64,000 nucleotides of DNA from an uncultured Planctomycetales bacterium (lineage in GTDB: Bacteria > Omnitrophota > Gorgyraeia > Zapsychrales > JANLHA01), in NCBI GenBank assembly GCA_964450385.1, contig CAYVEC010000002.1, positions 1,262 to 65,261 on the forward strand, read 5' to 3'. The notes under the pieces were generated by a model, which saw only the letters and a program-made list of their open reading frames with translations, ran no database searches and was not told where the DNA came from. Below, one piece after another: positions 11,292 to 30,593 of this stretch (position 1 is the stretch's first letter; each line of letters begins with the position of its first letter). Position numbers and translations under genes: made by a program.

Positions 11292-11654
11292 CTATTCCTC
11301 CTTTATTAAGGTTAACGTCACGGTTTCATCGCCCTTCGTCAGCACCACCGATCCCTGATCGATCGTCTCGATCCGATACAACCCGATCGTCTCGCCTTCT
11401 TTTAAAATCAACCCATTAATGATCGCGACATTCGTCCCGTCATTCCCGCTCATAATCCCCTGCAAGATCATTTCCGATGACAGGAGGTCCTTGTCATAAC
11501 TAACGACGCCCCCTCCCTTGTTCACAAGCGGCCAAAACGGATCACGGCGCCCGCCATCATCATAAACAAAAGGCCCCGGCTCCTCACCGGTCCAGGCGAT
11601 CCCCGCCTGTCCCAATATTGCCAGCGCCAACATGATGATCACTGCCCAGCGCAT
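11292..11654 (-). CDS. PilP-like small periplasmic protein
   Basis: The 120-aa product has a signal peptide and an 'RRDPFWP' motif. The motif resembles the conserved RDPF motif of PilP. It sits between pilO and pilQ with no gap to pilQ. Confidence 0.45.
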   Translation of the reverse strand: MRWAVIIMLALAILGQAGIAWTGEEPGPFVYDDGGRRDPFWPLVNKGGGVVSYDKDLLSSEMILQGIMSGNDGTNVAIINGLILKEGETIGLYRIETIDQGSVVLTKGDETVTLTLIKEE

Positions 11655-14093: not shown

Positions 14094-15608
14094 CTAATAT
14101 TTCCTCCAGACCAACACCTGACACATTCGCCGATCGTTTCCGATCATGCCCGGAGGAAGGTTCTTAGCTGTAGCAGGAACCTGATAGATCTTCGGAACCT
14201 GTCCCCCCATATCAAAATAATTTGAAACGATCGTTCCAATAACATTGGTTTGTTTATCAATAGTGATTTTATCCTGGGCGTAAAAAACCCCCATAATATC
14301 GACCTGGGCGCTTTTCCCGAGATTCAGTGATTTCTTTGTCATAATCCCTAGAATATTGTCCGGGAAAGATCGATCTCCGCTTGTCACTAAATTTTGTTGA
14401 ACGACCACATCTCCGGTAAAAACCATTGAACCCTTCCCAGAGTAGACCAAGTCTGTTTTTTTAGAACTCAACGCAAGCGGCGTTGTTCCATTATCAACAT
14501 AAAGAATGCCGTCTACTGTTAGCGCCCCATTCCCATCCCAAGATACGCTCCCTTTTGAATTACCAAAGCTAAACGCGCCCTGATTAGCAAGATTTCCAAG
14601 TTTTGTTTTTTCAGCAGCGGTTAATTCATAACCGGTTGTTTTTAAATAGGCCTCATACGTTGGATACCCCTTATAGGGATCGCTCAACCTGGGGAAAGAA
14701 ATCTCCTCCCCTAAATCAAAGGCCTCACTCGTCCCGTTATCAGAAAAAACATGTCCCGCCCCCGCCGTGCCGCCGTAGCCATCTGTAACATAGACACCGT
14801 CAACCGTCTCTTTATAACCATTGCCTGTGACGTTCGCCTCACCGACGGCAGATGATCCGCTGATGCCGACAATCCCCTTTTTAACGCGCAGGGTCGCATT
14901 CAATGTCTCAACCCACTCATTGTTAAAAAAGACCTGCGGAAGAACTGGCACCTTGGCTTTTAAATAATCCGCGAGCGTCCGATAGTTGTTCCCCACGATC
15001 TCAGCCGTCCCTCCGAGATCAACCGCATAAGCCCCCTCGTCTAAGTCTTCCCCTAAAATAAGGACCGCTCCCCGAATATCCACATTTCCGTTAATAATTT
15101 TCCCTGACATCCCGCTCCCGGCGAAGATCACATACTCCCAGGGAGACAGATTCACCTGTTTAATATAAACTTCAAGACGGGTCACCGCATCCTGGACCTG
15201 CCCCACGGAACGGATCAAAAGAACACTCGCGTCATTCTGGGCGCGCGTGACGGTCACATTATATTGGCCGTCTTGAAAAGGAACATCGGTAAAAAAATCC
15301 TCTGCGGTGACATTGTCCTCAAAAACGACGTTGATCCCATAGATACTCCCATTCCCCCAAGGATTATAGGCCGAATCATTGTTGAGGTCCCAATCCAGGG
15401 CATAGAACGCAGCATCAACCCCTGCCTCGGCGATGTGAAAGCTCTTCATCGACAGACGTTCCCGCTCAGCGAGCCGCAACTCGCTCGTCGCCAGAAGCAT
15501 GAACGCGGCGCCGATGCCGAGGAGAAGGGCGATCACGCAGTACGCGATGATCAACAGGCTCCCGCGCTCATTGTGAAGACACGCTCGCTGCATCTTTTTC
15601 ATGATCAT
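14094..15608 (-). CDS. large minor pilin with a PilX-N-terminal domain (putative tip or adhesin subunit)
   Basis: The 504-aa product has an N-terminal hydrophobic segment. This is followed by 'ELRLAERERLSMKSFHIAEAGVDAAFYAL', a PilX_N-type signature. The large C-terminal region is predicted beta-rich and Gly/Asn/Thr-rich. Confidence 0.55.
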   Translation of the reverse strand: MIMKKMQRACLHNERGSLLIIAYCVIALLLGIGAAFMLLATSELRLAERERLSMKSFHIAEAGVDAAFYALDWDLNNDSAYNPWGNGSIYGINVVFEDNVTAEDFFTDVPFQDGQYNVTVTRAQNDASVLLIRSVGQVQDAVTRLEVYIKQVNLSPWEYVIFAGSGMSGKIINGNVDIRGAVLILGEDLDEGAYAVDLGGTAEIVGNNYRTLADYLKAKVPVLPQVFFNNEWVETLNATLRVKKGIVGISGSSAVGEANVTGNGYKETVDGVYVTDGYGGTAGAGHVFSDNGTSEAFDLGEEISFPRLSDPYKGYPTYEAYLKTTGYELTAAEKTKLGNLANQGAFSFGNSKGSVSWDGNGALTVDGILYVDNGTTPLALSSKKTDLVYSGKGSMVFTGDVVVQQNLVTSGDRSFPDNILGIMTKKSLNLGKSAQVDIMGVFYAQDKITIDKQTNVIGTIVSNYFDMGGQVPKIYQVPATAKNLPPGMIGNDRRMCQVLVWRKY

Positions 15609-15610
15609 CG

Positions 15611-16126
15611 TCAGTTCCTCAGGCTAATGAAAAACTCTGTCTGCCGGGTGATCGGCACCCCGGACACGGTCTTTTGCGCTGTGATATCGATCTCGATCAG
15701 ATCCGGTTCAGTCATCGACGGCGCGCACCCGAAAACCAGAATATCCGACGCCACGACCCGGGTGACGCCCCCTTCTGTCTTAAGCAGCTGATGGGTGCCG
15801 GCATCAAGGATAAAACGGATCTCGGCATCCTCACCGGCTGGCCACGTCTTAAGTCCAGAAATGAATTCTGGCTTTTTAAAAATCATCATCCCGTCCGCAA
15901 GAGTAATGACCCCGCCCTGCCCGGTCTCGCGTAACGTCCCGGTGATCCCGGTCACGGCCCGGCGGATCTCCTGCTGAAGCTCGATCCGCGTCCGGTTCGC
16001 GCTCCAGAAGCGCTGAGCGACATTCGAGGTCGCGGCCATCCCGCCGGCCAAAAAGAGAAAAATAAAAACAACGACCATGACCTCTGGCAAGGTCATGCCT
16101 TGAGTCCCTCGTCCTCGTGTCAGCAT
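15611..16126 (-). CDS. minor pilin (PilW-like) with class III signal peptide
   Basis: The prepilin cleavage motif is 'G|MTLPEVMVVV' with Glu at +5. I moved the start to the internal Met, which removes the overlap with the upstream gene. The ORF track runs to 16186. Confidence 0.6.
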   Translation of the reverse strand: MLTRGRGTQGMTLPEVMVVVFIFLFLAGGMAATSNVAQRFWSANRTRIELQQEIRRAVTGITGTLRETGQGGVITLADGMMIFKKPEFISGLKTWPAGEDAEIRFILDAGTHQLLKTEGGVTRVVASDILVFGCAPSMTEPDLIEIDITAQKTVSGVPITRQTEFFISLRN

Positions 16127-16160
16127 CCGGTGATCCATCCCCAACTCCCCTGCCTCTCCG

Positions 16161-16679
16161 TCAGCGCCGTGCCAAAACCGTCTCAATCGTGACCGGTGAA
16201 TCGATCAACAGATTGCCATTGATATCCTCGCCGTCCAAGGCGCCGTCCAAATTCTGGTCCTCGCCGACCACCCGGCCGTTGTGATTCCGCCAGCAGACCG
16301 CAACGCGGACCGCAAGGACCTCAAGGGGCTCTCCGTTAATAAGCTCCTCAACCGCACCGCTCGCTGCGACATGCGTGTTCACAACACGGACCGTGCCCAG
16401 GCCCTCGACCCCATCGAGCGGAAACGTCCGGCCATTATATGTTGAGATCAGCGTATCAAAATCAGCCTCGCGCATCTCCTCTATCAAGGCGTCAGCCGCG
16501 ATCAGCGCCGTCATTTTCTTCTCGGCCATGTCCCCGGCGGCCGCGATATAAAGATATCCCCGGATCAATCCCAAGATCACGACCGCAAGAATCGCAGCAA
16601 CAAAGATCACCTCGACGAGTGTAAACCCCCCCCTCGTCCGCCGGCCATGGCCCCATCTCTGACACAAACATTTTCTCAT
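16161..16679 (-). CDS. minor pilin (PilV-like) with class III signal peptide
   Basis: The 172-aa product has the motif 'G|FTLVEVIFVAAIL' with Glu+5. Confidence 0.6.
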   Translation of the reverse strand: MRKCLCQRWGHGRRTRGGFTLVEVIFVAAILAVVILGLIRGYLYIAAAGDMAEKKMTALIAADALIEEMREADFDTLISTYNGRTFPLDGVEGLGTVRVVNTHVAASGAVEELINGEPLEVLAVRVAVCWRNHNGRVVGEDQNLDGALDGEDINGNLLIDSPVTIETVLARR

Positions 16680-17404
16680 AGCGCAACCTCTGTCTCAACG
16701 GGAGTCACCCGCTCCGTCTTAATCAATTGTCCTGACGGATCAAAACGTAAAATTTCAACGAGCTGTCCATGCCGATTATACGCCTTTTTATAACGATTTG
16801 GATCGCGGTTCGTCAAATTCCACTCATACATAACCCGCCCGTCATTAAAATAAACAATTCCATGTCCCGTCTCAACCTCATCAGGCACATTTAAGGCATC
16901 ACGATAGTCGATCTCCATCCGAAGGTCCCCGGATGTAAAATATTCTTTCATCCAAACGATCTTACCGCGATCATACTCCTTAATAAAACGCAGCTGCCCT
17001 GTCTTAAAATATTCGCGATACTCCCCGTCCCAGGCCCCATCGCGCCACTCAGCGTTCCCATATGTCTTCGTCGTCGTATTCTCAAAGGCCACCTTGCCAT
17101 CCGGCACATCACCGCTCATATCAAAGATCCGTTCCCCCTGGCTCTTAAAGCGTCCGATCTGTTCTCCGTTCAGCGAGACAAAATGCAGATTGTATGTCCG
17201 GCTCGGATCCATGACCACCATCATCGTCATCTCAACCGACGGCGCGACAATAAGCCGACCCGAGACGGTCTCGTCGTCAACCGCCTCCTCTTGAACGACA
17301 GGCTTTACCGAGACCCCCTCAAGACGGCGCATGACCACAATATTGATCACGCACCCGGTGACCAATGCCACCCCGATCAGGATCCATGTCTTTTTCTTAT
17401 CCAT
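16676..17404 (-). CDS. membrane-anchored MORN/YwqK-type repeat protein
   Basis: The 242-aa product has an N-terminal TM helix. It carries repeated 'G...Y..G.L......Y' units resembling MORN-variant/YwqK repeats. It is embedded between pilA and the minor pilins. Confidence 0.45.
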   Translation of the reverse strand: MDKKKTWILIGVALVTGCVINIVVMRRLEGVSVKPVVQEEAVDDETVSGRLIVAPSVEMTMMVVMDPSRTYNLHFVSLNGEQIGRFKSQGERIFDMSGDVPDGKVAFENTTTKTYGNAEWRDGAWDGEYREYFKTGQLRFIKEYDRGKIVWMKEYFTSGDLRMEIDYRDALNVPDEVETGHGIVYFNDGRVMYEWNLTNRDPNRYKKAYNRHGQLVEILRFDPSGQLIKTERVTPVETEVAL

Positions 17405-17437: not shown

Positions 17438-17473
17438 AAAAAAAGAGGGGGGCCTAATCATTAAGCCCCCCTC
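17438..17473 (-). terminator. rho-independent terminator downstream of pilA
   Basis: On the minus strand there is a perfect 9-bp GC stem GAGGGGGGC/GCCCCCCTC with an 11-nt loop. It is followed by TTTTTTT. Confidence 0.6.
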
Positions 17474-17488
17474 ACAGCACCCAACTCG

Positions 17489-17926
17489 TTACGGAGCTGG
17501 TTCCGGCTCAGGTTCAGCAGCCGCAACCCTCTCCAAGATACCGCCTGTGGTGATGCTGAAAATAACATCATCAGCACCTTCGGGCTTGGTCACAAGCGTC
17601 GCCACGAATTCATAGGCAGCGTCTGTGGCCGTGGGCCAGGTATACTCAAACCCTGAGATTGTACCTTCGCCTACATACGCACGATTGAGATACGGCGGAT
17701 TGGCCTCCGTCAGATCCGCCAATGCTGTCGGATAATTGCCGTTGTGCGATGACGCATAGGTCTCGGCTGCGGTTGATAGTGTCCGCAGGGTGCTCTGCGC
17801 CAACGCCTCGTTGGCCGTCATCCTGGCTCGCAAGAGGTTCGGGATCGCAATGATCGCCAACAGCGCGATGATCGCGACCACGATCATAATCTCGACGAGC
17901 GTGAAACCACGTTGATACCTTCTCAT
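17489..17926 (-). CDS. pilA: type IVa major pilin PilA
   Basis: The short leader reads 'MRRYQRG|FTLVEIMIVVAIIALL' with Glu+5. A perfect SD 'AAGGAGGG' lies 5 nt upstream of this ATG. The ORF track extends to an upstream ATG at 17986. Confidence 0.82.
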   Translation of the reverse strand: MRRYQRGFTLVEIMIVVAIIALLAIIAIPNLLRARMTANEALAQSTLRTLSTAAETYASSHNGNYPTALADLTEANPPYLNRAYVGEGTISGFEYTWPTATDAAYEFVATLVTKPEGADDVIFSITTGGILERVAAAEPEPEPAP

Positions 17927-18422
17927 CTTTCCCTCCTTGTACGTTGACGTACGTTCTCCCCAACCTCCTGCCGCCTGGCCGGGCATTGCGTCGTCACGTG
18001 CCGAGAGAAAAAAGAAAAGATAACTACATTTATCCCGTCACCCAGACGCCTAATGCCTTAACCATTTGGCCCTAAAAGATTTACCAACTTTTGTATAATA
18101 TCACACAGACAGCGTGTGTCAATCGGTAAACCAAAAACTTCAGACAGAATAAAAAAACCCTATTCACAGGGTCAAATAGGGCACAGTTCCATTATATTAA
18201 AACTTCTTTATTAATGGCAACTGGCTGCCCCTATCCACGATAGTCGGGCCCTCTAGCTTTGTGTCCCATCCTTCCGAATGGTTTACCTTGAGCATTAAAC
18301 ACCTTTTTCAAAGAACGTTCTTCCGACACTACAAGTATAGTCTAGGCCTATCGCAAAAGTCAAGGGCACCAAAAGTAGCAAAAATATAATGATTTAAATA
18401 AAATTTGTAAAAAATGAAGGGA
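17927..18422 (-). promoter_or_regulatory. about 0.5 kb AT-rich non-coding leader and promoter region of pilA
   Basis: No credible ORF lies here and GC is clearly below the window average. A GGCACG-N5-GACGCAA element sits at about 17986-18003 on the minus strand. It resembles a sigma54 -24/-12 box but its spacing is 1 nt off consensus. Confidence 0.4.
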
Positions 18423-20114
18423 TTACTGCATCTGCGCCTCGAGAAGTCCGAGTTTGTCCACTAAGCCGCGGTTCTCCTTCTCTAATATCTCAAGATAACT
18501 CGCCAGCTCTTTCATCTCCATGGCCGCCTCATCACGATCCAAACTATCGGCACGGTATTTCTGCTGGGCAATCTCCAGCGAACCCTTCAACGCCTTCTGG
18601 CGGGCCCGCAAGGCAGCCAGGGCCTGCTCCCTGGCCTGTTTATTTTCAACCGCCTTCACCTTGGCCTGGTCCCTCTCTTCAGCCAAAACCTGCGCCTGCT
18701 TCGCGCCCTCTGCCACATCGGTCTCAAGTTCCTTGAGCCGCTGGCTCAATGATGTCTCCTCGGCTGTCACACGCTCGAGCAGGCGAGACCGATCCGTCAT
18801 CTCCCGCTCCGCCGCCTTCCGCACCGCCTCCCTCGTCTCCTCAGCGAACCGCTGTTTGGCCCGCTGGGCTAAAAGATTCTGATATTCACTGCCGAACACC
18901 TTCTGCCGCATCCTCCCCGTCTCCTCGGCAGCGCCGGCCACGCGTGATGCCATCACCGCGAGCTCCGCCTTAAGCCCTTCCATGTCGCCTCGCAACCGAG
19001 CCGTCTCAGCCTCTTGGGCCGCGATCTCGCGCCCGATATCCGCCGAGTCCGACTGAAGGATCCGCTGCCGCGCAGCCAATTGTTCCTGCTCCCCAACGAG
19101 AACCAGTCGCTGATGGTCTGCCCCCGCGACCCCATCTTCGGCCGAGCGCTTGATCTCAAGGAACCGCGCCCGAGCGCGGAGCAACTCATTATGCTCACGG
19201 ACCTGGGCCCGCAGGCGCTCTAAGGCCTCAGCCTGTCGGTCAAAATCAGCGGTGATCTCCCGACGGACACGGGCCATGTCAGCGCTCGCCTCGCGGAGCG
19301 ATTGACTATACTGACGAAGCCCCGCAACCTTGAGTTCCGCTTCCTTCACCACGGAACGACCCTCACTGCGATAACGGCTCTTATGGCGCTCTAATAATGC
19401 GTATTGATCTTCAGCCTCTCGGATCTCTAGACGAAGGAGCGAGGCTCGCTCCTCAAGCCCCGACCGCTGGCGGAGGGTCTTTTCCTTTAAACCCAGCTGA
19501 TGGGTCCGCTCGACGTCAAGAAGATCGGCGTCGCCCTCTTTCGCAAAGATCCGCCGCCGGACATCCTGGACCATCTCACGGAGCTTAACGCGCTCTTCGG
19601 AATAATAATCCAGCAATTCATTCGGCGCGCGTCGAAGACCCCGCTCCTTAAGGACCTTGATCTCGGGGGTCAGGGCCTCGATCGTCTGCTGAGCGAGACG
19701 CTGTTCCTGAGTCTCCCTCTCGATCCGCTGGGCCACCCCGTCCTTCTCGAGAGTCAAAAAACGCTGGCGTTCTAAAATATTCGCGGCATGTTTGCGAAGG
19801 CCATCGAGTTCCCGGCCCTCGGCCTTGATTGTATTCCTCATCACGGCGGCCTCTTCCATCAAACGAGTCCGCCGATCGCTGAACGAACGCGATTCGTCAC
19901 GAATAAAGATCATCCTTTTTCGAAGGGCATCGTTCTTTCCGGCAAGCTGCTGGTTCTGATCAACCAATCCCTTGATCTTCTCCTGAAGGTCGATGAGGGT
20001 ATATTCAAGGAGGTCATCGGCGCTCATCCCGCCCTGCTGAGCGTGGGCGCCCACGGCCCAGACGCCGACGGCCACGATCGCCACAATGATGTTCAACCCC
20101 CTCTGTCCCCGCAT
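18423..20114 (-). CDS. secreted long coiled-coil protein of unknown function
   Basis: The signal peptide reads 'MRGQRGLNIIVAIVAVGVWAVGAHA'. About 540 aa are then dominated by Glu/Arg/Ala/Leu/Gln heptad-like sequence. It lies between pilC and pilA. Confidence 0.5.
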   Translation of the reverse strand: MRGQRGLNIIVAIVAVGVWAVGAHAQQGGMSADDLLEYTLIDLQEKIKGLVDQNQQLAGKNDALRKRMIFIRDESRSFSDRRTRLMEEAAVMRNTIKAEGRELDGLRKHAANILERQRFLTLEKDGVAQRIERETQEQRLAQQTIEALTPEIKVLKERGLRRAPNELLDYYSEERVKLREMVQDVRRRIFAKEGDADLLDVERTHQLGLKEKTLRQRSGLEERASLLRLEIREAEDQYALLERHKSRYRSEGRSVVKEAELKVAGLRQYSQSLREASADMARVRREITADFDRQAEALERLRAQVREHNELLRARARFLEIKRSAEDGVAGADHQRLVLVGEQEQLAARQRILQSDSADIGREIAAQEAETARLRGDMEGLKAELAVMASRVAGAAEETGRMRQKVFGSEYQNLLAQRAKQRFAEETREAVRKAAEREMTDRSRLLERVTAEETSLSQRLKELETDVAEGAKQAQVLAEERDQAKVKAVENKQAREQALAALRARQKALKGSLEIAQQKYRADSLDRDEAAMEMKELASYLEILEKENRGLVDKLGLLEAQMQ

Positions 20115-20131
20115 CGTCAGCCCCTCCACCC

Positions 20132-21337
20132 CTACTTAATCATCTGAGTCAGACTCAAGATCGGCATAAACAAGGCGATCACGATGAACCCAATGACAAC
20201 GCCCAAGACAACAATGATCACCGGTTCGATAATGCTCGTCAGACTCGCAACAGCGGCATCGACCTGGTCCTCATAAAACTCCGCAAGCTTGGTCAGCATC
20301 TTTTCAAGCTGACCGGATTTTTCGCCGATCGAGATCATCCGCGTCACCATCGGCGGGAAGACCGGACTTTTCATCAGTTGCGTGGCGATGCTATCGCCTT
20401 CACGAACGCTGTTTTTGACCGATTCGATGACGAGCTCGATCTCGCGATTGCCGCTCGTCCTGCCGACGATGTCAAGCGACTCAAGGATCGGCACACCGGT
20501 CTGGAGCAGGATCGCGAGCGTCCGGCTGAACCGGCTGATCACCGCCTTGCAGATGAGTTCTCCAAAAAGCGGGATGCGGAGCATCAGGCGGTCGATCGCC
20601 AACCGCCCCGCCGAGGTCCGATACCATCGCGCCAGAAAGAAAATGCCGACGACCAACGCCCCGAAGATCCACAACAAGTATTTCTTGAGAAAATCGCTCA
20701 TGTCGATCAGGATCTGGGTCATCCAGGGGAGCTCTGTGTCGAACGATTCATAGATCTCGGCAAAGGCCGGGACCATCTTCACGAGCAGGAGCGTGGTGAT
20801 CCCGATGGCGACACACACAACAACCGCGGGATAGGTCAAGGCCGAAATGACCTTGCGGCGCAGTTTCGCGCTTTTCTCAAGATACCCCGAGATCCGGTCC
20901 AGGATCTTGCTCAAGACCCCGCCGGTCTCGCCGACCTTCACCATGTTCACAAAGAGATTATCAAACACCTTCGGATGTTTGGCGAAGGCGGCCGACAGAC
21001 TACTGCCCAATTGAATGTCCTCGCGGAGTGAGCCGATGACCATCCTAAAATACGGATGGGTCATCTGCTCTTCAAGGGCCTCTAGGCACTGGAGGATCGG
21101 AATGCCCGCCTCGACCATCGTCGCAAGCTGCCGGGAAAAAATAACAAGGTCATCGGATTTGACCTTCTTCCGTTGAAAGGAGAACGCAATCCCCTTCTGC
21201 CTCACCTCGACGATCGAAACGACCATCAGGTTGCGGTTGCGGAGCTCGGAGACCACTCCTTTTTCATTATCAGCGGTGACGGAACCCATCACGGTCTGGG
21301 CATTATGGTCCTTCGCGACATACTTATAAGTCGGCAT
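20132..21337 (-). CDS. pilC: type IV pilus inner-membrane platform protein PilC (GspF family)
   Basis: The 401-aa product has two GspF repeats with three TM segments. Confidence 0.88.
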   Translation of the reverse strand: MPTYKYVAKDHNAQTVMGSVTADNEKGVVSELRNRNLMVVSIVEVRQKGIAFSFQRKKVKSDDLVIFSRQLATMVEAGIPILQCLEALEEQMTHPYFRMVIGSLREDIQLGSSLSAAFAKHPKVFDNLFVNMVKVGETGGVLSKILDRISGYLEKSAKLRRKVISALTYPAVVVCVAIGITTLLLVKMVPAFAEIYESFDTELPWMTQILIDMSDFLKKYLLWIFGALVVGIFFLARWYRTSAGRLAIDRLMLRIPLFGELICKAVISRFSRTLAILLQTGVPILESLDIVGRTSGNREIELVIESVKNSVREGDSIATQLMKSPVFPPMVTRMISIGEKSGQLEKMLTKLAEFYEDQVDAAVASLTSIIEPVIIVVLGVVIGFIVIALFMPILSLTQMIK

Positions 21338-21429: not shown

Positions 21430-23139
21430 TCAAATGTCGCTCGTTGCGATCCGAAGGGCCTCCTCAAGACTCGTGAGACCCGCAGCGCACTTTCCGATCA
21501 CATCATCCCACAACGTGACCATCCCTCGGTCCGCGCAGGCGTACTTTTTGATCGCATCCGATGATTCGCCCCGAATGAGCATCGTGCGCACCGCATCATC
21601 GATCTCGAGGACCTCGGTGACCCCGAGACGGCCATGATATCCCGTGCCGCGGCAGATGTCGCATCCCCGGGCGCGATAAAAAATCGTTCCGGGAGGAGCC
21701 TCGACGTGCAACCGCGCCAAGGCATCGGCGGGAACATCCTCGCGCTCCTTACAATGACTGCAAAGACGACGGCAGAGACGCTGGGCGCACACAAGGACGA
21801 GACTCGATGCAACAAGGAACGGCTCAATCCCCATATCAACAAGCCGGGTCAAGGCGCCGGCGGCATCGTTCGTGTGCAGGGTCGAGAGCACGAGCTGGCC
21901 GGTCAGCGCTGCCTTGATCGCAATATCCGCGGTCTCACCATCGCGGATCTCGCCGACCATGACGACGTCGGGACTCTGACGAAGGATCGCACGAAGGGCC
22001 GAGGCAAAGGTCAGTCCGATTTCAGGCCGGGCCTCGATCTGGGTCAACCCCTCGACAAGGTATTCAACCGGGTCTTCGACCGTAATGATGTTCCGGTCAA
22101 CGGTGTTCAATTCATTGATGACCGAATACAAGGTCGTCGACTTTCCACTCCCCGTCGGTCCGGTCACCAAGAGCATCCCGAAGGGTTTATACATCCCCTC
22201 CTTCAGGACCTCGGTAGCCCGCGGCGAAAACCCCAGACCGCTTAATCCCACACTCAAATTTTTCTTATCAAGAACACGCAGGACCACCTTCTGCCCGAAC
22301 GTCGTCGGCAGGAGGGACACGCGGAAATCTACTTCCGTCGAAGAGAACCTCATCTTGAACCGTCCATCCTGAGGGGCCCGCGTCTGCGTAATATCAACGC
22401 GGGACATAATCTTAATTCGAACGATCACCGCGTTCTGATTGTCTTTCGGCACATTCATAATATCTTGGAGAACTCCGTCGATGCGGAAACGCACCCGCAT
22501 CCCTTCGGGGGCCGGCTCGAGATGGATGTCCGAGGCACGTTGGCGAAGGGCCTCTTTGATCATAAGATTAACCAGCCGAATGATCGGCGCCTGTTCGCCC
22601 TCATCGGCCCCTCCGTCGGCCACGTGATTGTCGGCCCGTTCGGTCACGATCTCAAAGTCCTTCAAATCGATATCACGGCTGAGATCACGGACACTGTCCG
22701 TAACCGCACCGCTGTAATAATCCTCGATCGCCTGCATAATATCGGTTTCCGTCCCCATCACCATATCGATGTCGTGCCCGGTAATATTCTTCAGGTCATC
22801 CGTCACAAACACATTGAGGGGATCAGCGATCGCGACCGTGATCGTGTCTTTCAGACGAGAGAGGGGGACAATGTGATACTGCCGGGCGACGCGCTCGGGA
22901 ACCAGATTCTTCAGTTCAGGACTGATCTTATATTTCTTTAAATTAATGAACGGGATCCTGAGCTCCTTCACGAGCGAGGTCAGCATGTCCTCTTCTTTGA
23001 TCAGCCCCTTCTCGATCAGAGCCCGATCCAGAGAGATCCCCCGGCTCTCCTGAAGGGCGATCGCCGACTCGATCTCCTTCTGCGGGATCTTTAATGACTC
23101 GATCAGGGCCTTAATGATCTTTTGCTTTAACGTATCCAC
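21430..23139 (-). CDS. pilB: type IV pilus assembly ATPase, PilB/GspE family (paralog B)
   Basis: The 569-aa product has an N-terminal GspE_N domain and Walker A 'GPTGSGKST'. It carries the tetracysteine motif 'CSHC...CDIC'. Confidence 0.85.
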   Translation of the reverse strand: MDTLKQKIIKALIESLKIPQKEIESAIALQESRGISLDRALIEKGLIKEEDMLTSLVKELRIPFINLKKYKISPELKNLVPERVARQYHIVPLSRLKDTITVAIADPLNVFVTDDLKNITGHDIDMVMGTETDIMQAIEDYYSGAVTDSVRDLSRDIDLKDFEIVTERADNHVADGGADEGEQAPIIRLVNLMIKEALRQRASDIHLEPAPEGMRVRFRIDGVLQDIMNVPKDNQNAVIVRIKIMSRVDITQTRAPQDGRFKMRFSSTEVDFRVSLLPTTFGQKVVLRVLDKKNLSVGLSGLGFSPRATEVLKEGMYKPFGMLLVTGPTGSGKSTTLYSVINELNTVDRNIITVEDPVEYLVEGLTQIEARPEIGLTFASALRAILRQSPDVVMVGEIRDGETADIAIKAALTGQLVLSTLHTNDAAGALTRLVDMGIEPFLVASSLVLVCAQRLCRRLCSHCKEREDVPADALARLHVEAPPGTIFYRARGCDICRGTGYHGRLGVTEVLEIDDAVRTMLIRGESSDAIKKYACADRGMVTLWDDVIGKCAAGLTSLEEALRIATSDI

Positions 23140-23143
23140 GTTA

Positions 23144-24859
23144 TTACCCTATTCCTTCGTCAGGCGCGGTGACACGCAGAACCTCCTCAAGCGAGGTGTG
23201 CCCAGCCACCGCCTTCAAAAGCCCGTCCTCACGCATCGTCCGCATCCCTTCTCGCCGTCCGACCTCTTTGATCTTAAGCTCCCCGGACTGATGGAGGATC
23301 TCTTCACGCACCGGGGCCGTGAGGACGAGAAGCTCGCAAATAACAACCCGGCCGACATACCCAGTATTAAGGCACTCGGGACACCCCCTGCCGCGATACA
23401 GGCGGAACGTCTTCTCACCTAAGAGGGCCGTCAACCCCACCCGGCGAGCGAGCTCCGGCACAACCTCATACGATTCGCGGCATCGCGGACAGATCCGCCG
23501 GACAAGACGCTGCCCGGTGATCGCCAGGACCGAAGAGCACAGGAGAAACGGCTCGATCCCCATGTTCATCATGCGGATGATCGACCCTGCCGCCGTTGTC
23601 GTATGCAGGGAACTTAAGACCAGATGCCCAGTCAGCGCGGCCTTGACCGCGATATCCAGGGTCTCGGTATCCCGGATCTCACCGATCATGATGATATCAG
23701 GATCCTGCCGGAGGATCGAACGCAGGGCCGAGGCAAAGGTCAAACCTACCGACGGCCGGACATTCACCTGATTGATGCCCTTGACCTGATATTCAACCGG
23801 GTCCTCGACCGTGATGATGTTCTTCCCTGGAGAATCGACAAATTTCAGAACGGAATACAGGGTCGTGGTCTTCCCGCTCCCCGTCGGACCGCACGAGAGG
23901 ATCATCCCGTGGGGATGGAGCGAGACCTCCTTGAGACGGGCCAGATCCGACTCCTCAAACCCAAGCTTCTCAAGGTCCAACGCCCCAGCGGATTTGTCAA
24001 GGACGCGGAGCACGATCTTCTCACCGAACGCCGTCGGCAAGACATTGACACGGAAATCAATCTCACGGCCGTTGACCACGGTCTTGAACCGCCCGTCCTG
24101 CGGCAACCGGTGCTCCGAAATATCAAGATTGGAAACAACCTTAATCCGTGAAATGATCGGCTGATGCAGGGCCTTGGCCATCTGATCGATCTCGCGAATG
24201 ATACCGTCGATACGATACCGAATACGGAGCGTCGCCTCCATCGGTTCGATGAACACATCGCTCGCCTTCGCAAGGACCGACTGATGAATGATCGTGTCCG
24301 TCAACTTGATCATCGGGGCGTCCTGGACGATGTCCGTCACCTTAACATCACCCACCCCGTCACTCTTCACGAGCTCGCCGTCCTCAGAGATGTCTTTAAT
24401 GATGTCCTTAAGGGCCGCGCTCGTATCGGCAGAATAATATTTATCGATGGTCTGTTGGATCTGGGCCGAACGACCGATGATCGGAATGATGTTCAGGCCT
24501 GTCAGGACCTGGACATTATCGATCGCAAAAATATTGAGGGGATCGGCCATGGCGAGGGTGAGGTTATCCCCCATCCGCGAGACCGGCATGATCTTGTTTT
24601 TCTCGGCGACAGCGCGCGGGATGATCTTGACGACCTCGGGATCGATGCGCAGGCGCGAGATGTCGATCGGCGGCATCCCAAGCCCCTCGCTTAACGCATG
24701 GGTCAGATCGTCCTCGGTCACCAGCTTCATCTGAACCAGGATCCGGCTCAGCTCGCCCCCGGATTTCTTTTGCTCATCGAGGGCCCGCTGAAGGTCCGCC
24801 TCTTTGATGATCTGATCCCTGATCAGGACCTGCTGTAAACGTTCCTTGAGCGAGAACAT
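23144..24859 (-). CDS. pilB: type IV pilus assembly ATPase, PilB/GspE family (paralog A)
   Basis: The 571-aa product has an N-terminal GspE_N domain and Walker A 'GPTGSGKTT'. It carries the tetracysteine motif 'CPRC...CPEC'. Confidence 0.85.
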   Translation of the reverse strand: MFSLKERLQQVLIRDQIIKEADLQRALDEQKKSGGELSRILVQMKLVTEDDLTHALSEGLGMPPIDISRLRIDPEVVKIIPRAVAEKNKIMPVSRMGDNLTLAMADPLNIFAIDNVQVLTGLNIIPIIGRSAQIQQTIDKYYSADTSAALKDIIKDISEDGELVKSDGVGDVKVTDIVQDAPMIKLTDTIIHQSVLAKASDVFIEPMEATLRIRYRIDGIIREIDQMAKALHQPIISRIKVVSNLDISEHRLPQDGRFKTVVNGREIDFRVNVLPTAFGEKIVLRVLDKSAGALDLEKLGFEESDLARLKEVSLHPHGMILSCGPTGSGKTTTLYSVLKFVDSPGKNIITVEDPVEYQVKGINQVNVRPSVGLTFASALRSILRQDPDIIMIGEIRDTETLDIAVKAALTGHLVLSSLHTTTAAGSIIRMMNMGIEPFLLCSSVLAITGQRLVRRICPRCRESYEVVPELARRVGLTALLGEKTFRLYRGRGCPECLNTGYVGRVVICELLVLTAPVREEILHQSGELKIKEVGRREGMRTMREDGLLKAVAGHTSLEEVLRVTAPDEGIG

Positions 24860-24862
24860 GCC

Positions 24863-25312
24863 TTATGATTTCCGGTAATATTTCGTGATCGCCTCTTTAA
24901 TATCCGCGCCCGTCGCGACAAAGGTCTGAACGCTGCACCCGGTCAAGGCCTCAACATCCTCAACGGCAGTCATGTTCAACGGATCGGCCATGGCCAAGGT
25001 CAGGCTCTTTCCGATCTTATCGATCGGGATCAGACAAAACCGGCGGCAGACATCTTCAGGAACCGCGTCGAGAACTTCCTGATCGATCTCATAATTCGCC
25101 AAAGGCAAGTAAGGAAAACCATATTGACAGGTCAGGGCCTGCGCGATATCCTCTTCGGTGGCGAATTTCAGTTCGACGAGGACCTCACCAAAGAGCCCGC
25201 CTTTTTCTTTTTGAAAGGCCATGGCCGCGAGAACCTGATCCGCGTTGATCACGCCTCGGTCGATGAGGAGCTCGCCCAAATGTTTATTTGACGCCCGCTT
25301 TAAATTCTTCAT
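24863..25312 (-). CDS. standalone GspE_N/MshEN-like domain protein (candidate c-di-GMP binding)
   Basis: It runs about 150 aa from the internal Met 'MKNLKRASNKHLGELLIDRGVINADQVLAAMAFQ'. This fits the MshEN motif pattern RLGxxLxxxGxIxxxQLxxALxxQ. It has no ATPase domain. Confidence 0.55.
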   Translation of the reverse strand: MKNLKRASNKHLGELLIDRGVINADQVLAAMAFQKEKGGLFGEVLVELKFATEEDIAQALTCQYGFPYLPLANYEIDQEVLDAVPEDVCRRFCLIPIDKIGKSLTLAMADPLNMTAVEDVEALTGCSVQTFVATGADIKEAITKYYRKS

Positions 25313-25400
25313 CCATCCCCCGATCACCCAAAATCTTGCGCTTATTGTACTACAGAACACACCTTCGCTCAATTTATAGTATTATTAATGCTACTATATT

Positions 25401-26507
25401 TTAAAAAATGGTCCGGCGCCGACTCAAGCTCAACAGGAGCCCAATCATCACAACAGAGATCATATAGGATGACCGGCCAAAACTCACGAGCGGCAAAGTC
25501 AGCCCCACGACTGGACAGAGCCCCAAGACCATCCCGATATTGATAACGACCTGAAGAATAAAAATACCCACGATCCCAACGGCGAGATGGACCCCAAATC
25601 GGTCCTGGCTCTCCTCCGCGACCTTGAGACCGCAATACATGAGAACCGCATAACACGCCACCACAAAAAGGGTTCCCGCAAGCCCCCACTCCTCGCCAAT
25701 AACGGAAAAAATAAAATCCGTGTGCCTCTCCGGCAAGAAATTCAACTGATTCTGCGTGCCCTCAAGCCATCCCTTCCCGAGCACCCCCCCGGAACCGATC
25801 GCGATCTTTGACTGAATGATCGTGTAGCCCGCGCCCAAAGGATCAATGTTCGGGTTAAGAAAAACAAGGAGCCGGTCGCGCTGATAGGGTTTGAGAATAT
25901 GCCAGGCAAAAGGCATCAGGCAAAGACAGGCCCCCAAGAACCCGCCTAAATATTTATACGACAGCCCGCTGGCAAAGGCCATAATAACGAAGATCCCCAG
26001 GAAGAGGAGCGCAGTCCCGAGGTCCGGCTGTTTAAAGATGAGCAGCGTCGGAAAAAGAACAAGGATCAGGGGCACTCCGAGATCCATCCAGATATCACCA
26101 TAGAGGACCTCATCCTTAAAAGCAAATGAGGAACGGCGCTCAGCAAAATACCTGGCCAGGACAAAGATCACCCCTAGTTTCGCGAATTCCGACGGCTGAA
26201 AACTGATCCCGGCGAAAGAGAACCATCGCGTCGCGCCCAAGGCATGACGGCCCATAAGCAGGACAAGGATCAGGAGGAGGACGATCCCGCCGTAATAACC
26301 ATACGCGATATCATAACAATGACGATAATCCATGCGGCTCAAGAGAAACATCACGACGATGCCTGCCACGGCAAAAAAAAGCTGGGCATAAAAGACCTCA
26401 TTCGACACGCGCACATTCTGATACGAGGCGCTATATAAGGCCACGAGCCCCGCCGCCATAATGAGGATCGTGCTGACCCAAATGCCTATCGAGAGATAAC
26501 GATTCAT
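25401..26507 (-). CDS. rodA: SEDS-family peptidoglycan glycosyltransferase RodA
   Basis: The 368-aa polytopic membrane protein sits immediately downstream of PBP2. Confidence 0.85.
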   Translation of the reverse strand: MNRYLSIGIWVSTILIMAAGLVALYSASYQNVRVSNEVFYAQLFFAVAGIVVMFLLSRMDYRHCYDIAYGYYGGIVLLLILVLLMGRHALGATRWFSFAGISFQPSEFAKLGVIFVLARYFAERRSSFAFKDEVLYGDIWMDLGVPLILVLFPTLLIFKQPDLGTALLFLGIFVIMAFASGLSYKYLGGFLGACLCLMPFAWHILKPYQRDRLLVFLNPNIDPLGAGYTIIQSKIAIGSGGVLGKGWLEGTQNQLNFLPERHTDFIFSVIGEEWGLAGTLFVVACYAVLMYCGLKVAEESQDRFGVHLAVGIVGIFILQVVINIGMVLGLCPVVGLTLPLVSFGRSSYMISVVMIGLLLSLSRRRTIF

Positions 26508-26510
26508 CGG

Positions 26511-28226
26511 CTAAAGGACCCCGTTCTTCCTCAGTTCCGTTAATAAATTCTTCGTCACCCGGACCGCGTAATAACTCGACCCGCCATATTCCAAGAACAC
26601 GCAGAATGAGACGCGTTTGATGCCTTTCAGATTATATCCGGCGAACCACGCGTGGCTGTTCTTATTCGGGGCCGTCTGCGCGGTCCCGGTCTTTCCATAG
26701 ATCTCAAAACCGTCCATGTTCAAGATCCGCGCCGTGCCCTGCGGGCTCACGATCGCGAACCGGAGTCCCTGATGGATCAAATCAAAGATCTCCGGACCGA
26801 TCTTAAGCGGCCGGGCGGTTGCTGCCTGGACCACCGGCTGATCATCGATCGCCCGAATCAGATGCGGCTGGACCATCTGCCCGTTACGGGCCACGATGGC
26901 CATGAGCCGCGCCACCTGGATCGGGGTCGTCAAGATATCTCCCTGGCCGATGGAGAAATTCAACGTATCCCCCTTGAACCATCCGAGATTGTATTTTTTC
27001 TTCCGAAAGGCCTTATTCGGGACCTGGCCGTTCTCCTCGGCCGGAAGATCGATCCGGCTCTTTTCACCAAGCCCGAACAGGCGGGCATATTTATACATGA
27101 TCTCGGAATCCAAAATCAGTCCCAGATTGTAATAAAACACGTTGCACGAGTGGCCCAGAGCCTGAAGGATATTCTGATCGTAATGAACATGGGCGCAGCG
27201 AAAACGGCGCCGGCCCAACTGATAAAAGCCCGGACAATGAAATGTCGTGTGCGGCGTGATCTTCCCCGTGTGCAGCCCGGCGACAGACATGACCGTCTTA
27301 AAGACCGAGCCCGGGGGATACTGCCCTTTAATGACACGGTTCAACATCGGCGCGTTCGCGTTCGTAATGAGGGCCGCCCGCTCTGATCCCCGCCGGTCCT
27401 CACTAAAGACATTCGGATCAAACCCCGGCGCACTGATCAGGCCAAGGACCTCCCCGGTATCGATATCCATCACCACAACCGCGCCGGCCCGGCCCTCGAG
27501 GGCCGCATTCGCCGCCTGCTGGATCCGCGTATCGATCGTGAGATGAATATCACGTCCGCGTTTCGGTTCCCGGATGCCCAACAGTCGGACCTGCTGCCCA
27601 CGGCTGTTCACCTCGATCTGAAGCCCCCCCTCCTCGGCCATCAGATAATGATCATAGTATTCCTCAACGCCGGAATATCCGACGATGCTCTGCTGCGAAT
27701 AGCCATAGTCTTTCAATTTTTTGACCTTAGCGCTATCGATCTTGCCGACATACCCCAAGACATGCCCTCCAATCTCTCCGAAGAGATATGAACGGCGGAA
27801 CATCTCCTGGATATGGAGCCCCGGGAACCGAAAACGGTTCTCTTCCAACACCATAGCCGTCTGTTTATCGATATCATCGACGATCACAACCGGAGCGAAG
27901 GGCGTCTGTCGGCGCTGCGTGAACTTCTTAACAAGGGCATCAGGCGTGGTCTTAAGCACCCGGGCTAAAAAGGCGAACAACTCATCACGGTCTCGGATGT
28001 CCTGAGGGACCACCGCGACATTAAACGAGAGACGGTTCCCGGCGAGAACCTCGCCCTGACGATCAAAGATCCGGCCGCGCTGACCTTCCATGGGAACAAC
28101 ACGAATCCGATTGCTCACGCTCAACTGATAATAGCGCCTGCCCTGAAAGGCCTGCAGATGAATAAGGGCAGCCGCCAGGATGACAAATAAGACCCAAACG
28201 ATTATGCGAATAATTTTAATGCGCAT
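26511..28226 (-). CDS. mrdA: penicillin-binding protein 2 (elongasome transpeptidase)
   Basis: It has a TM anchor 'IIVWVLFVILAAALI', a PBP dimerisation domain and a transpeptidase domain. I chose the start at the internal 'MRIKII'. The ORF track extends to 28397. Confidence 0.85.
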   Translation of the reverse strand: MRIKIIRIIVWVLFVILAAALIHLQAFQGRRYYQLSVSNRIRVVPMEGQRGRIFDRQGEVLAGNRLSFNVAVVPQDIRDRDELFAFLARVLKTTPDALVKKFTQRRQTPFAPVVIVDDIDKQTAMVLEENRFRFPGLHIQEMFRRSYLFGEIGGHVLGYVGKIDSAKVKKLKDYGYSQQSIVGYSGVEEYYDHYLMAEEGGLQIEVNSRGQQVRLLGIREPKRGRDIHLTIDTRIQQAANAALEGRAGAVVVMDIDTGEVLGLISAPGFDPNVFSEDRRGSERAALITNANAPMLNRVIKGQYPPGSVFKTVMSVAGLHTGKITPHTTFHCPGFYQLGRRRFRCAHVHYDQNILQALGHSCNVFYYNLGLILDSEIMYKYARLFGLGEKSRIDLPAEENGQVPNKAFRKKKYNLGWFKGDTLNFSIGQGDILTTPIQVARLMAIVARNGQMVQPHLIRAIDDQPVVQAATARPLKIGPEIFDLIHQGLRFAIVSPQGTARILNMDGFEIYGKTGTAQTAPNKNSHAWFAGYNLKGIKRVSFCVFLEYGGSSYYAVRVTKNLLTELRKNGVL

Positions 28227-28687
28227 TCTTTCAACTTTCGAAAAACAAATCCTGCCACGACCGTCGTGGCGATCAGCTCCGGCAATAAAATCGAGGATAG
28301 AACCTGGCCCCAATCGATCGGCACAAAAAAGGAACGCACCGCGCCCTGAAGAATCACATAGAGGATCGTCACGACGAAGACAATAAAGACCCGCCATCCT
28401 CCGGAACCGGGGATATAAAAATACATTTTCACGAACGAGGCAAGGCAGGCGCTCCCCATAAAAACAAAAATATGGAGACCGAAAAGGTCCGCACTAAAAC
28501 AATCACGGAGCAGACCGGCCCAGAAGGCCGTCAGCATCCCGTAGCGGATCCCCCGATAAAGATTAAAAAAGACAACCGCCGTGATCAACAGGTTCGGCCT
28601 AAACCAGCCGCCGAAACAGTCGATCAGAACCTGCTCAATGACAAATAGAGCAACAACGACCAGGGCAATAATCGCAGTATTTCTCAT
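28202..28687 (-). CDS. mreD: rod shape-determining protein MreD
   Basis: The 161-aa polytopic membrane protein lies between mreC and mrdA. Confidence 0.7.
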   Translation of the reverse strand: MRNTAIIALVVVALFVIEQVLIDCFGGWFRPNLLITAVVFFNLYRGIRYGMLTAFWAGLLRDCFSADLFGLHIFVFMGSACLASFVKMYFYIPGSGGWRVFIVFVVTILYVILQGAVRSFFVPIDWGQVLSSILLPELIATTVVAGFVFRKLKECALKLFA

Positions 28688-28707
28688 CCAGCCCTCACAT
28701 CACAGAT

Positions 28708-29493
28708 TCATTGGCGATGAAGGATCAGCACTTCTTCAAGCTGAGACACGGCCACGGCAGGTTCAATAAGACAATCAACAGTCAGGCTATTGTTGTCGAT
28801 CCGGACATCGATGACCTGGCCGATGACCAGCCCCTCAGGGAATGACGAACTCAGTTTTGACGTGATGACCACGTCCCCGTTCTCAACGTCGGCCTCAGGC
28901 GCAAGATAGCGCATCCGGTTCTTGGATTGAAGAGTCCCCGAGATCAGCCCGACCTCGCGCGACCGCTTCACCGTCCCAACGACGGAGAACCCGGGATCGG
29001 TCAGGAGAACGACCTTGGCCTTCGTCTCGCCGACCTCGGCGACCTTCCCCACCACCCCCAGGGCACTCACGACCGGCATGCCGACATCGACCCCGTCCTG
29101 TCGACCGCGGTCAACGACAAGCATCGAATTCCAATTCGTCGAGTCCCGGCCGACGACATTCGCCGCGATCGATGCGAAGACCTGCCGTCGTTTAAAATCA
29201 AGCAGCTGAGCCAGCCGATTATTCTCCCGGACGATCTCATCGATGCCGAGGACCCGCTCGGTGAGAAGGGCATACTCCAACTTCAGGTCCTGATAGGCCT
29301 GATAGGTCTGATGATAGGTCACGATCTTCTTGACCTCATGGAAAATAACCGAAACAACCCGGATTGGGGCGAGCACGGTCTGAACAACGGCAAATTTAAG
29401 CGGGACGACAAGAGACGGACGGATAAACAGCAGCAGGAACGCCGCGAGAAGGAAAAGAGAATAGGTTATGAATTTCGGATTTCTTCGCGACAC
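28708..29493 (-). CDS. mreC: rod shape-determining protein MreC
   Basis: The 261-aa product has an N-terminal TM helix, a coiled coil and beta-domains. Confidence 0.85.
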   Translation of the reverse strand: MSRRNPKFITYSLFLLAAFLLLFIRPSLVVPLKFAVVQTVLAPIRVVSVIFHEVKKIVTYHQTYQAYQDLKLEYALLTERVLGIDEIVRENNRLAQLLDFKRRQVFASIAANVVGRDSTNWNSMLVVDRGRQDGVDVGMPVVSALGVVGKVAEVGETKAKVVLLTDPGFSVVGTVKRSREVGLISGTLQSKNRMRYLAPEADVENGDVVITSKLSSSFPEGLVIGQVIDVRIDNNSLTVDCLIEPAVAVSQLEEVLILHRQ

Positions 29494-29516
29494 ACATTAA
29501 AGTCTTCTAAACCGGG

Positions 29517-30593
29517 TTAATTAAAATCTAATTTCGTCGGAACCACCAATCGCCGACGCAGCCGAAGCGGCATGTTAAGCATCTGGCCTGTCCCCAACAC
29601 AACCGCGGTCATCGGGTCATCGGCGATATGCACCGGCAGTCCCGTCTCTTCCGCGATGCGGCGGTCCAGCCCGCGCAGGAGCGCCCCTCCGCCAGCCATC
29701 ACAACGCCCCGGTCAATAAGGTCCGAGGCGAGTTCCGGCGGGGTGTTCTCCAGGGTGGCCTTCGAAGCCTCAACGATCGCCTGGACCGGCTCCTGCAGGG
29801 CCTCACGGATCTCTTCAGATGTCACGGTAATGGTTTTCGGTAAACCGGCAATAAGATCTCGCCCCCGCACATCCATGGTGAGCTCTTCCTCAAGCGGATA
29901 CGCGGACCCGATCCGAATCTTGATCTCCTCAGCGGTCCGTTCACCGATAAGCAAATTATATGTCTTCTGTAGATAATCAATGATCGCCGCATCCATCTTG
30001 TCCCCGGCCACACGGATCGACTTGGCGTAGACGAGTCCACCAAGCGAAATAACCGCGTACTCCGTCGTACCACCTCCGATATCAATGATCATGTTTCCGG
30101 CCGCCTCTTCAACCGGAAGCCCAACCCCGACGGCCGCGGCCTTGGGTTCTTCAATCATCTCCACCGAGCGGGCCCCGGCCTGACGGGCTGAATCATGGAC
30201 CGCGCGTTTCTCGACCTCAGTGATCCCTGACGGAATAGCAACCACCATCGCAGGACGCATGAGGACCTGGCGTTTATGGACCTTTTTGATGAAATATTTC
30301 AACATCGCCTCGGTCACCTCAAAATCCGAAATGACCCCGTCCTTCATCGGCCGGATCGCCACAATGCTCCCCGGAGTACGTCCCAACATCTTTTTCGCCT
30401 CATCGCCCACGGCAACAACACGATTCGTCTCTCGCTCCATGGCCACAACAGACGGCTCACACAGTACAACGCCCTCGCCCTTCAGGTACACCAAGGTCGT
30501 GCACGTCCCTAGGTCGATCCCCATGTCATTGGAAAATAACCCAATGATATAATCGAACAACTGTTTCAAAATTCTAAGAATTTTAGAAACCAT
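29517..30593 (-). CDS. mreB: rod shape-determining actin homologue MreB
   Basis: The 358-aa product reads '[17 protein letters not shown]...' (actin fold). Confidence 0.9.

Follow-up and report, generated by a model that had tools for sequence, protein, structure and literature searches.

The window analysed here, a stretch of 64,000 nucleotides (nt) from contig CAYVEC010000002.1 of an uncultured Omnitrophota bacterium (assembly GCA_964450385.1), carries two adjacent genes for PilB-class ATPases, set between a gene for a stand-alone MshEN domain protein and the gene for a pilus platform protein. All genes of interest lie on the minus strand of the window, and the names SA, A1, A2 and SA2 are labels of this report. 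The four genes at the centre of the analysis are, in minus-strand order:

24863-25312, minus strand: SA, a stand-alone MshEN/GSPII domain protein of 149 amino acids (aa), with an ATG at 25312 (Pfam MshEN, E = 2e-21)
23144-24859, minus strand: A1, the upstream PilB-class ATPase, 571 aa, ATG start, with an MshEN-type N1 domain, N2 and a C-terminal domain (CTD) with a zinc tetracysteine
21430-23139, minus strand: A2, the downstream PilB-class ATPase, 569 aa, GTG start, with T2SSE and MshEN Pfam matches
20132-21337, minus strand: PilC/GspF platform protein, 401 aa (Pfam T2SSF, E = 6e-69)

An earlier sequence-only reading of this DNA had described two tandem PilB-type open reading frames (ORFs) upstream of pilC, and that arrangement is confirmed at these coordinates, with 4 nt between the A1 stop codon and the A2 start codon. 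It overlooked SA, which lies directly upstream of A1 and whose longest ORF begins at a TTG at 25372. A2 and PilC are separated by 92 nt, and SA2, a second stand-alone MshEN gene found at this place in many relatives, is absent there. The PilC gene gives 400-416 bits with the NCBIfam PilC and GspF models and is the sole platform gene of the cluster.

By domain content and motifs, A1 and A2 are both full-length PilB-class (extension-type) ATPases and neither is PilT-like. Each matches Pfam T2SSE (A1 E = 8e-135, A2 E = 1e-130) and MshEN/GSPII_E_N (A1 E = 1e-21, A2 E = 3e-22), the latter placing both in the fold-level family PF05157. The N-terminal domain, Walker A motif, Asp and His boxes and tetracysteine that had been attributed to both copies are borne out by the Pfam matches and by the motifs read from the translations: Walker A is GPTGSGKTT in A1 and GPTGSGKST in A2, and the two proteins have in common the Asp box ITVEDPVE, the Walker B motif GEIRD, the His box LHT and CxxC...CxxC. 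Both N-terminal peptide strings quoted earlier are likewise present as written. The best matches of A1 and A2 in the Protein Data Bank (PDB) are the Geobacter and Myxococcus PilB structures (524-550 bits, full length), with GspE at approximately 380 bits and PilT chains far below at approximately 115-134 bits. Among family models, TIGR02538 (type IV-A PilB) scores highest for both (A1 622.4 and A2 611.3 bits, below the equivalog cutoff of 675.65), followed by TIGR02533 (GspE; 576 and 575 bits against a cutoff of 630), whereas pilT_fam gives only 174 bits for A1 and 196 for A2 against a cutoff of 319, in agreement with the sequence-only reading that neither copy resembles PilT. Both proteins therefore show the PF00437 core, tetracysteine and N1 domain that define the PilB/GspE extension class, and neither shows the PilT/PilU combination of approximately 350 aa, no N1, no zinc tetracysteine and an AIRNLIRE-type motif.

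The A1/A2 pair is conserved across the phylum in a fixed order. A scripted survey covered 86 related loci, with gene order judged where enough downstream DNA was available, and every such locus has the order SA, A1-type, A2-type, (SA2), PilC; the loci without an intact A2 either reach a contig edge or carry the gene as two separate ORFs. Among species-representative genomes, a scan for A1 yielded 80 loci at 55-82% identity. Identity within the groups is 55-82% for A1 and 57-74% for A2, against approximately 42% between them. The A1 stop codon precedes the A2 start by a median of 7 nt (20 nt or less in 46 of 70 loci, with 11 overlapping) and the SA stop precedes the A1 start by a median of 3 nt, the genes overlapping in 41 of 83 loci. 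SA2 lies between A2 and PilC in 45 loci and is 31-45% identical to SA; examples are at L006 5207-5752, L007 6176-6643 and L084 12890-13360. All named close homologues and carriers of A1 are Candidatus Omnitrophota, and the cassette recurs with different upstream genes in a deeper lineage whose named relatives are also Omnitrophota. A closed 1.43-Mb genome has the order HAMP-GAF-GGDEF-like gene, PilT, SA, A1, A2, PilC. In the nearest named outgroup, the Sumerlaeota, a single PilB gene is followed by PilC and there is no SA. In three metagenome-assembled genomes one ATPase gene is split into two adjacent ORFs (L018 4259-6003, L075 8282-10024 and L024 6453-8180), through either an assembly-error frameshift or true pseudogene formation.

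Both A1 and A2 are apparently catalytically competent. The possibility, raised earlier, that one copy might be a pseudo-ATPase is not supported: there is no inactivating change in Walker A, Walker B or the LHT His box of either copy, and the motifs are kept across orthologues. The Walker A Lys, the Asp-box Glu, the catalytic Glu, the γ-phosphate His of LHT and the Arg finger of PQDGR are present in 85/85 A1 and 70/71 A2 proteins, and the four Cys residues in 84-85 of 85 A1 and in 71/71 A2 proteins. The positions that are fixed within each clade but distinguish A1 from A2 are concentrated in N2 and the CTD. In the N2 motif ASDIH, the His is found in 118 of 119 other representatives, in all 42 A2-clan proteins, in E. 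coli GspE and HofB and, among the fused two-module proteins described below, in 14/14 first modules and 12/14 second modules, but it is replaced by Phe, Leu or Met in 36/36 A1-clan proteins. Conversely, the His of the His-box motif TGH is present in 118 of 119 others and in all 36 A1-clan proteins, and is Gln in 38 of the 42 A2-clan proteins. The two changed residues are F203 in A1 and Q415 in A2. Further changes are a Thr to Cys replacement just before Walker A and LHTN to LHTT in A1, and RQDPD to RQSPD in A2. In Geobacter PilB the equivalent of the TGH residue, H413, sandwiches T411 together with H420 at the packing-unit interface, and the His box has been linked to inter-chain cooperativity (PMC5424180). 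Since each paralogue has lost a residue that the other keeps, co-adaptation is suggested; the reciprocal loss of near-invariant histidines is the pattern expected if A1 and A2 depend on one another.

At one locus, L083 (GCA_018824865.1; 6163-10783), the only exception to this conservation, the pair is retained with catalytic motifs substituted in both copies. The protein in the A2 position, P0148, reads GPADSNKS, GQIRD and STMQT, and the L083 A1 has a His-box His to Gln change, an Arg-finger Arg to Cys change and GEIPD. A pseudo-ATPase A2 partnering an active A1 was considered here and dropped, because the L083 A1 is degenerate too. The substitutions point to lineage-wide decay or repurposing, which makes the locus uninformative on division of labour. 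Within the sequence at hand, an HD_5/HD (HD-GYP-type) gene follows the L083 pair in the place of PilC.

Aligned end to end, the two copies share 43% identity (246/573, E = 3e-161), well under the 90% or so that had been set in advance as the mark of a recent trivial duplication. Mean distances over the N2 and CTD core are 0.88 between A1 and A2 and 0.87 between A2 and E. coli GspE, compared with 0.42-0.44 within each group; by this measure, the A1 and A2 lineages have diverged from each other as much as PilB has from GspE, and the pair is ancient. In a neighbour-joining (NJ) tree of 227 core modules (N2 plus CTD), A1 and A2 each form a clan with unnamed representatives, those checked sitting in the same cassette, the A1 clan being recovered in 68/100 bootstraps and the A2 clan in 55/100. 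In profile comparisons the N-domains of A1 and A2 are each other's best non-self match, and a common origin of the two is thereby mildly favoured. Of the sub-functionalisation proposed by the sequence-only reading, what stands is that these are old, diverged, non-redundant paralogues with their own orthologue groups in 80 or more species; its c-di-GMP assignment is unsupported and its retraction-like role unlikely, while the evidence speaks neither for nor against a second-pilin role.

The MshEN domains divide the locus in another way. The binding motif for cyclic di-GMP (c-di-GMP) consists of two copies of RLGxx(L/V/I)(L/V/I)xxG(L/V/I)(L/V/I)xxxxLxxxLxxQ with a 5-residue spacer; the Gly at position 3 (Gly3) bonds guanine through its backbone amide, and G11I/L and G40I abolish binding by MshE (PMC5013675). 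In an engineered PilF GSPII-A domain, one Gly to Ala change causes an approximately 10-fold loss of affinity (PMC12002112). When half-motifs were scored at 11 constrained positions, Gly3 was present in both half-motifs of 84/84 SA and 45/45 SA2 proteins, and of 0/85 A1 and 0/71 A2 proteins. The Gln at position 24 (Gln24) splits as Gly3 does, between stand-alone proteins and ATPase N-domains: it is found in 78/84 and 84/84 SA proteins for the two halves, and in both halves of 45/45 SA2 proteins. In A2 the Gly3 position is occupied by Asp, Glu or Val in motif 2 and by Ile or Leu in motif 1, and the motif-2 Gln24 is Glu. The half-motifs of the window begin RLQ... and ELS... in A1, and KII... and SLD... 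in A2. Canonical c-di-GMP binding by the ATPase N-domains is very unlikely on these residues and, as Gly3 is lost from A1 and A2 and kept in SA and SA2, the stand-alone proteins become the candidate sensors. The NCBIfam c-di-GMP motif model NF053729 (cutoff 38) gives 56.6 bits for SA, 51 for A1 and 24.5 for A2; the passing score of A1 was rejected as evidence of binding, as only the hydrophobic pattern is retained and both Gly3 residues are gone.

SA, present upstream of A1 in 84 loci, has the best-preserved c-di-GMP-type double motif of the locus, with the 5-residue spacer and the hydrophobic cluster kept. Its AlphaFold model (pLDDT 86) shows a complete two-subdomain MshEN fold, for which Foldseek returns template modelling (TM) scores of 0.84 to PilF GSPII-A and 0.74-0.78 to c-di-GMP-bound MshE (5HTL). 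SA is thus a candidate sensor of c-di-GMP or another dinucleotide, ligand binding being what we infer from motif and fold. It has approximately 3,000 homologues, the best 120 of which are all single-domain proteins of 148-165 aa; the named ones among these 120 are annotated as hypothetical or as PilB. In approximately 20 of the 86 loci (for example L002 6733-8151, L091 5993-7426 and L085 2239-3681), the gene immediately preceding SA encodes a HAMP-GAF-GGDEF-type membrane protein.

The remainder of the cluster encodes the other parts of what is, by its gene content, a complete type IVa pilus-like locus with PilB, PilC, PilM, PilN (weak), PilO, the secretin PilQ and prepilin-type pilins. Downstream of PilC, and in the gap upstream of SA, the following features were identified:

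25344-25372, minus strand: promoter-like site TTGAGC-17-TACAAT, within the AT-rich stretch that separates rodA from SA (consensus scan 9/12, a match only)
18423-20129, minus strand: coiled-coil protein of 568 aa with an N-terminal hydrophobic segment, without a Pfam or family match
17489-17986, minus strand: prepilin-type major pilin candidate with an N_methyl motif
16676-17404, minus strand: MORN-repeat protein, sitting among minor-pilin-like genes
16161-16679, minus strand: minor-pilin-like gene, N_methyl
15611-16186, minus strand: minor-pilin-like gene, N_methyl
14094-15608, minus strand: protein of 504 aa with a pilin-like N-terminal helix, without a family match
12882-13976, minus strand: PilM (Pfam PilM_2, E = 1e-45)
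12256-12885, minus strand: PilN-like, a weak match (E = 0.0025)
11664-12275, minus strand: PilO (Pfam PilO, E = 8e-10)
11292-11654, minus strand: ORF of 120 aa
9762-11291, minus strand: secretin (Pfam Secretin, E = 5e-48)

On the minus strand the order is MreB, MreC, MreD, PBP2, RodA, SA, A1, A2, PilC, the coiled-coil protein, the pilin genes and then PilM to the secretin. The mreB-mreC-mreD-PBP2-rodA genes (25401-30593, minus strand, in the window) immediately precede the pilus cassette, in the same orientation, in 75 of 86 loci, an unusually stable linkage of elongasome and pilus genes. The 568-aa protein is nearly all coiled coil and holds a conserved place between PilC and the pilin gene, with 23-32% identity across related loci. 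Four strong promoter-like sites precede the pilin gene (18095-18411, minus strand), and a strong terminator-like hairpin, 13 bp and GC-rich with a T run, lies on its 3' side (17445-17473, minus strand); these signals of its own suggest separate and strong transcription of the major pilin. When all six-frame ORFs of the window were searched, no third T2SSE or PilT-type ATPase turned up, and neither c-di-GMP enzymes nor the prepilin peptidase PilD were found within the 64 kb. The rest of the window holds housekeeping genes; at 61570-62595 (minus strand) a 341-aa ORF encodes a single protein in which a SET domain (E = 1e-25) and a SpoU-type RNA methyltransferase domain (E = 3e-34) occur together.

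The best explanation at present is that A1 and A2 are a co-expressed, non-redundant pair acting jointly on one platform, a reading to which we give about an even chance. Its more specific form, an obligate heteromeric extension motor in which a mixed A1/A2 ring has two kinds of ATP site and receives dinucleotide input in trans through MshEN proteins, is put forward tentatively. A1 and A2 would be co-transcribed with SA upstream and PilC downstream, probably with translational coupling, and would together drive one type IVa pilus-like machine made up of PilC, PilMNO, the secretin and the pilins. The most likely form would be a mixed A1/A2 hexamer in which each paralogue supplies the function that the other has lost; alternatively, two rings could be physically coupled, as proposed for PilT and PilU. 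The N1 domains borne by the ATPases would have lost canonical c-di-GMP binding, and sensing of c-di-GMP or a related dinucleotide would have moved to SA, and to SA2 in many relatives, which may act in trans on the motors or on PilM. Such a mixed ring could have arisen by reciprocal degenerative changes after a duplication or after the acquisition of a second PilB.

Fused proteins provide an analogy for a mixed motor. An exhaustive search with A2 returned 17,670 representatives at E <= 1e-30, and 14 of the best 150, which were inspected, are single chains of approximately 1,000 aa with two complete PilB modules, that is N2 and CTD twice, each with its own Walker A and zinc site (P0123, P0124, P0127, P0129-P0131, P0133-P0136, P0143, P0150, P0156 and P0125). 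They fall in other clades; P0125 has a PilC-like N-terminus besides its two PilB modules, and the P0123 gene (L086 7001-10057) has no adjoining pilus genes. These chains show that the family can combine two non-identical PilB modules in a single assembly.

Several points weigh against joint action in a mixed, dinucleotide-controlled ring. The physical association of A1 with A2 and any effect on pilus dynamics are inferred, and the idea that the two His losses compensate for one another at a shared interface is speculation. An alternating ring would set unlike subunits opposite one another, whereas the working PilB hexamer is C2-symmetric (PMC5424180). On the sensory side, neither half-motif of SA or SA2 has the Arg at position 1, which stacks on guanine: in SA this position is Gln, His or Pro in motif 1 (13% within the relaxed set R/K/P/N) and Leu or Met in motif 2 (0%), with His and Leu in the window. 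Loss of the motif-2 position-1 Arg abolished c-di-GMP binding in the engineered PilF GSPII-A (PMC12002112); as PilF could not do without this Arg, SA can be taken only as a putative c-di-GMP binder. Nor does the genomic context supply a cyclase, since the GGDEF-type active site is degenerate in 17/17 of the proteins examined (GDHEF, AEHEF, GYSDF, NGNEI and others), and the RxxD I-site survives in only two of the 17. The HAMP-GAF-GGDEF genes next to SA were thus rejected as evidence for a diguanylate cyclase, and their products are probably non-catalytic sensors; the only possible c-di-GMP enzymes encountered are a large AGDEF protein in L084 and the HD-GYP-type gene in L083. Finally, an attempt to recover A1 and A2 as sister clades, as expected of a duplication within the phylum, found them together in only 9/100 bootstraps even though the NJ topology joins them, and the pair could be either an ancient duplication or an acquired second PilB.

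The rival to joint action that deserves most attention, which is possible if doubtful, is that A1 and A2 form independent homohexamers doing different jobs on the same platform, whether for different pilins, for speed or force, or for extension and retraction. Several pilin-like genes lie downstream, the 64-kb window encodes no PilT, and one PilB-like motor, CpaF of the Tad system, is described as working in both directions in work cited in PMC6668835. In addition, A1 and A2 differ most in their N1 domains (27-38% identity), which could mean different docking partners. A division into extension and retraction sits poorly with the full PilB hallmarks of both copies and with PilB structures as their best matches. 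It also sits poorly with the PilT gene of 355-358 aa found immediately upstream of SA in three lineages (L085, L091 and the P0144 contig), of which the L085 sequence was read and has an AVRSLIRE motif, and with the pilT (K02669) and pilD orthology terms listed alongside pilB for Omnitrophota in the supplementary tables of PMC10066038. As PilT coexists with the pair in at least three lineages, no retraction substitute is needed; A2 would not be a simple replacement for PilT, and a retraction-like role for either copy, as had been suggested from the sequence, is unlikely. In separate homohexamers, moreover, each loss of an invariant His would affect all six sites, and strict pairing with tight coupling is more typical of partners than of alternatives.

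It is less probable again that one copy is an attenuated or regulatory subunit, an adaptor or brake, instead of a working motor. Each copy has lost one near-invariant His and A2 has the RQSPD change as well, the L083 pair has been retained despite drift at its catalytic motifs, and an ATPase-dead PilT still supports PilU function (PMC6762196). However, the core catalytic residues from the Walker A Lys to the Arg finger are kept almost without exception in both orthologue groups, and L083, being degenerate in both copies, is silent on any division of labour. The proposal of the sequence-only reading that the downstream copy is a c-di-GMP-regulated motor acting through its own MshEN half-motif is now very improbable. 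A2 does keep a Gly and the hydrophobic pattern of motif 2, but the retained Gly belongs to the helix turn (position 10), 71/71 proteins lack Gly3 in both half-sites together, the motif-2 Gln24 is replaced, the motif model score is well short of its cutoff, and it is substitutions at the Gly3 residues G11 and G40 that abolish binding in MshE (PMC5013675). A trivial recent duplication, or an error of assembly, can practically be dismissed as the source of the pair: only the adjacency of two similar genes speaks for it, whereas the copies are well diverged and each has orthologues of its own in more than 70 genomes that were assembled independently, closed contigs of 1.4 and 3.4 Mb among them.

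Accounts of type IV pilus and type II secretion machines generally give each platform a single extension ATPase, and in genomes with multiple PilB proteins the paralogues usually occupy different loci and have a PilC or pilins to themselves. Clostridium and Synechocystis (PilB1/PilB2 in each) and Haloferax (PilB-PilC pairs) resemble the present case in having more than one extension-class ATPase per genome (PMC6958937, PMC6491452), but in the Omnitrophota a single PilC gene is shared by two PilB genes of the same operon, throughout the phylum. The PilT/PilU pair of Vibrio, Pseudomonas and Acinetobacter is similar in that two adjacent paralogous hexameric ATPases serve one pilus machine, PilU acting only through PilT in a proposed stacked or coupled arrangement (PMC6762196); PilT and PilU are of the short retraction class, without N1 or a zinc site, whereas A1 and A2 are full-length PilB proteins. 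The Geobacter and Myxococcus PilB proteins (5TSG/5TSH, 5ZFR, 3JC8) share with A1 and A2 the N1-N2-CTD layout, the zinc tetracysteine and all catalytic motifs, but they work as one PilB per machine and keep the His residues of which A1 and A2 each lack one.

For the MshEN component, the closest parallel is Thermus thermophilus PilF, a PilB-type motor with MshEN/GSPII domains whose GSPII-A is the best structural match of SA and has lost c-di-GMP binding through small motif changes (PMC12002112). PilF has three GSPII domains in cis on a single ATPase, whereas here the domain that keeps the motif is separate and there are two ATPases. Vibrio cholerae MshE shares with SA the fold, two 24-residue half-motifs, the 5-residue spacer, Gly3, the hydrophobic positions and Gln24, but in MshE the sensor is part of the ATPase chain and both halves carry the position-1 Arg, whereas SA is unfused and has Gln or His and Leu there. 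In the Xanthomonas PilB-PilZ-FimX system c-di-GMP input reaches the PilB N-domain in trans (PMC8389850), and PilB N-domain/PilZ structures are among the Foldseek matches of SA; there, however, the trans sensors are PilZ and EAL/GGDEF-type proteins and not a free MshEN domain. A survey of type IV filaments gives PilB/PilT and PilT/PilU as the only system-level ATPase duplications (PMC6668835). A literature search for paired or tandem PilB genes returned only genomes with separate PilB paralogues, and the Omnitrophota literature searched discusses type IVa pili without mention of their ATPases. No description of a PilB/PilB pair with a free-standing MshEN protein was found in the literature searched, and the arrangement appears to be new.

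To our knowledge, no heteromeric ring has previously been known in the PilT-like secretion ATPase superfamily, and an obligate A1/A2 ring, if true, would be the first. A PilB/PilB pair sharing one PilC throughout a phylum would be the third system-level motor duplication, and the pair offers a natural system in which to ask how PilB subunits cooperate around a ring. The analysis also bears on approximately 3,000 stand-alone MshEN proteins that are now annotated as hypothetical or mislabelled as PilB. Omnitrophota are mostly ultra-small and probably host-dependent or predatory, and a central part in their attachment to hosts is attributed to type IVa pili (PMC10066038); the motor pair and the detached MshEN proteins are thus likely to be part of the control of host contact in these cells.

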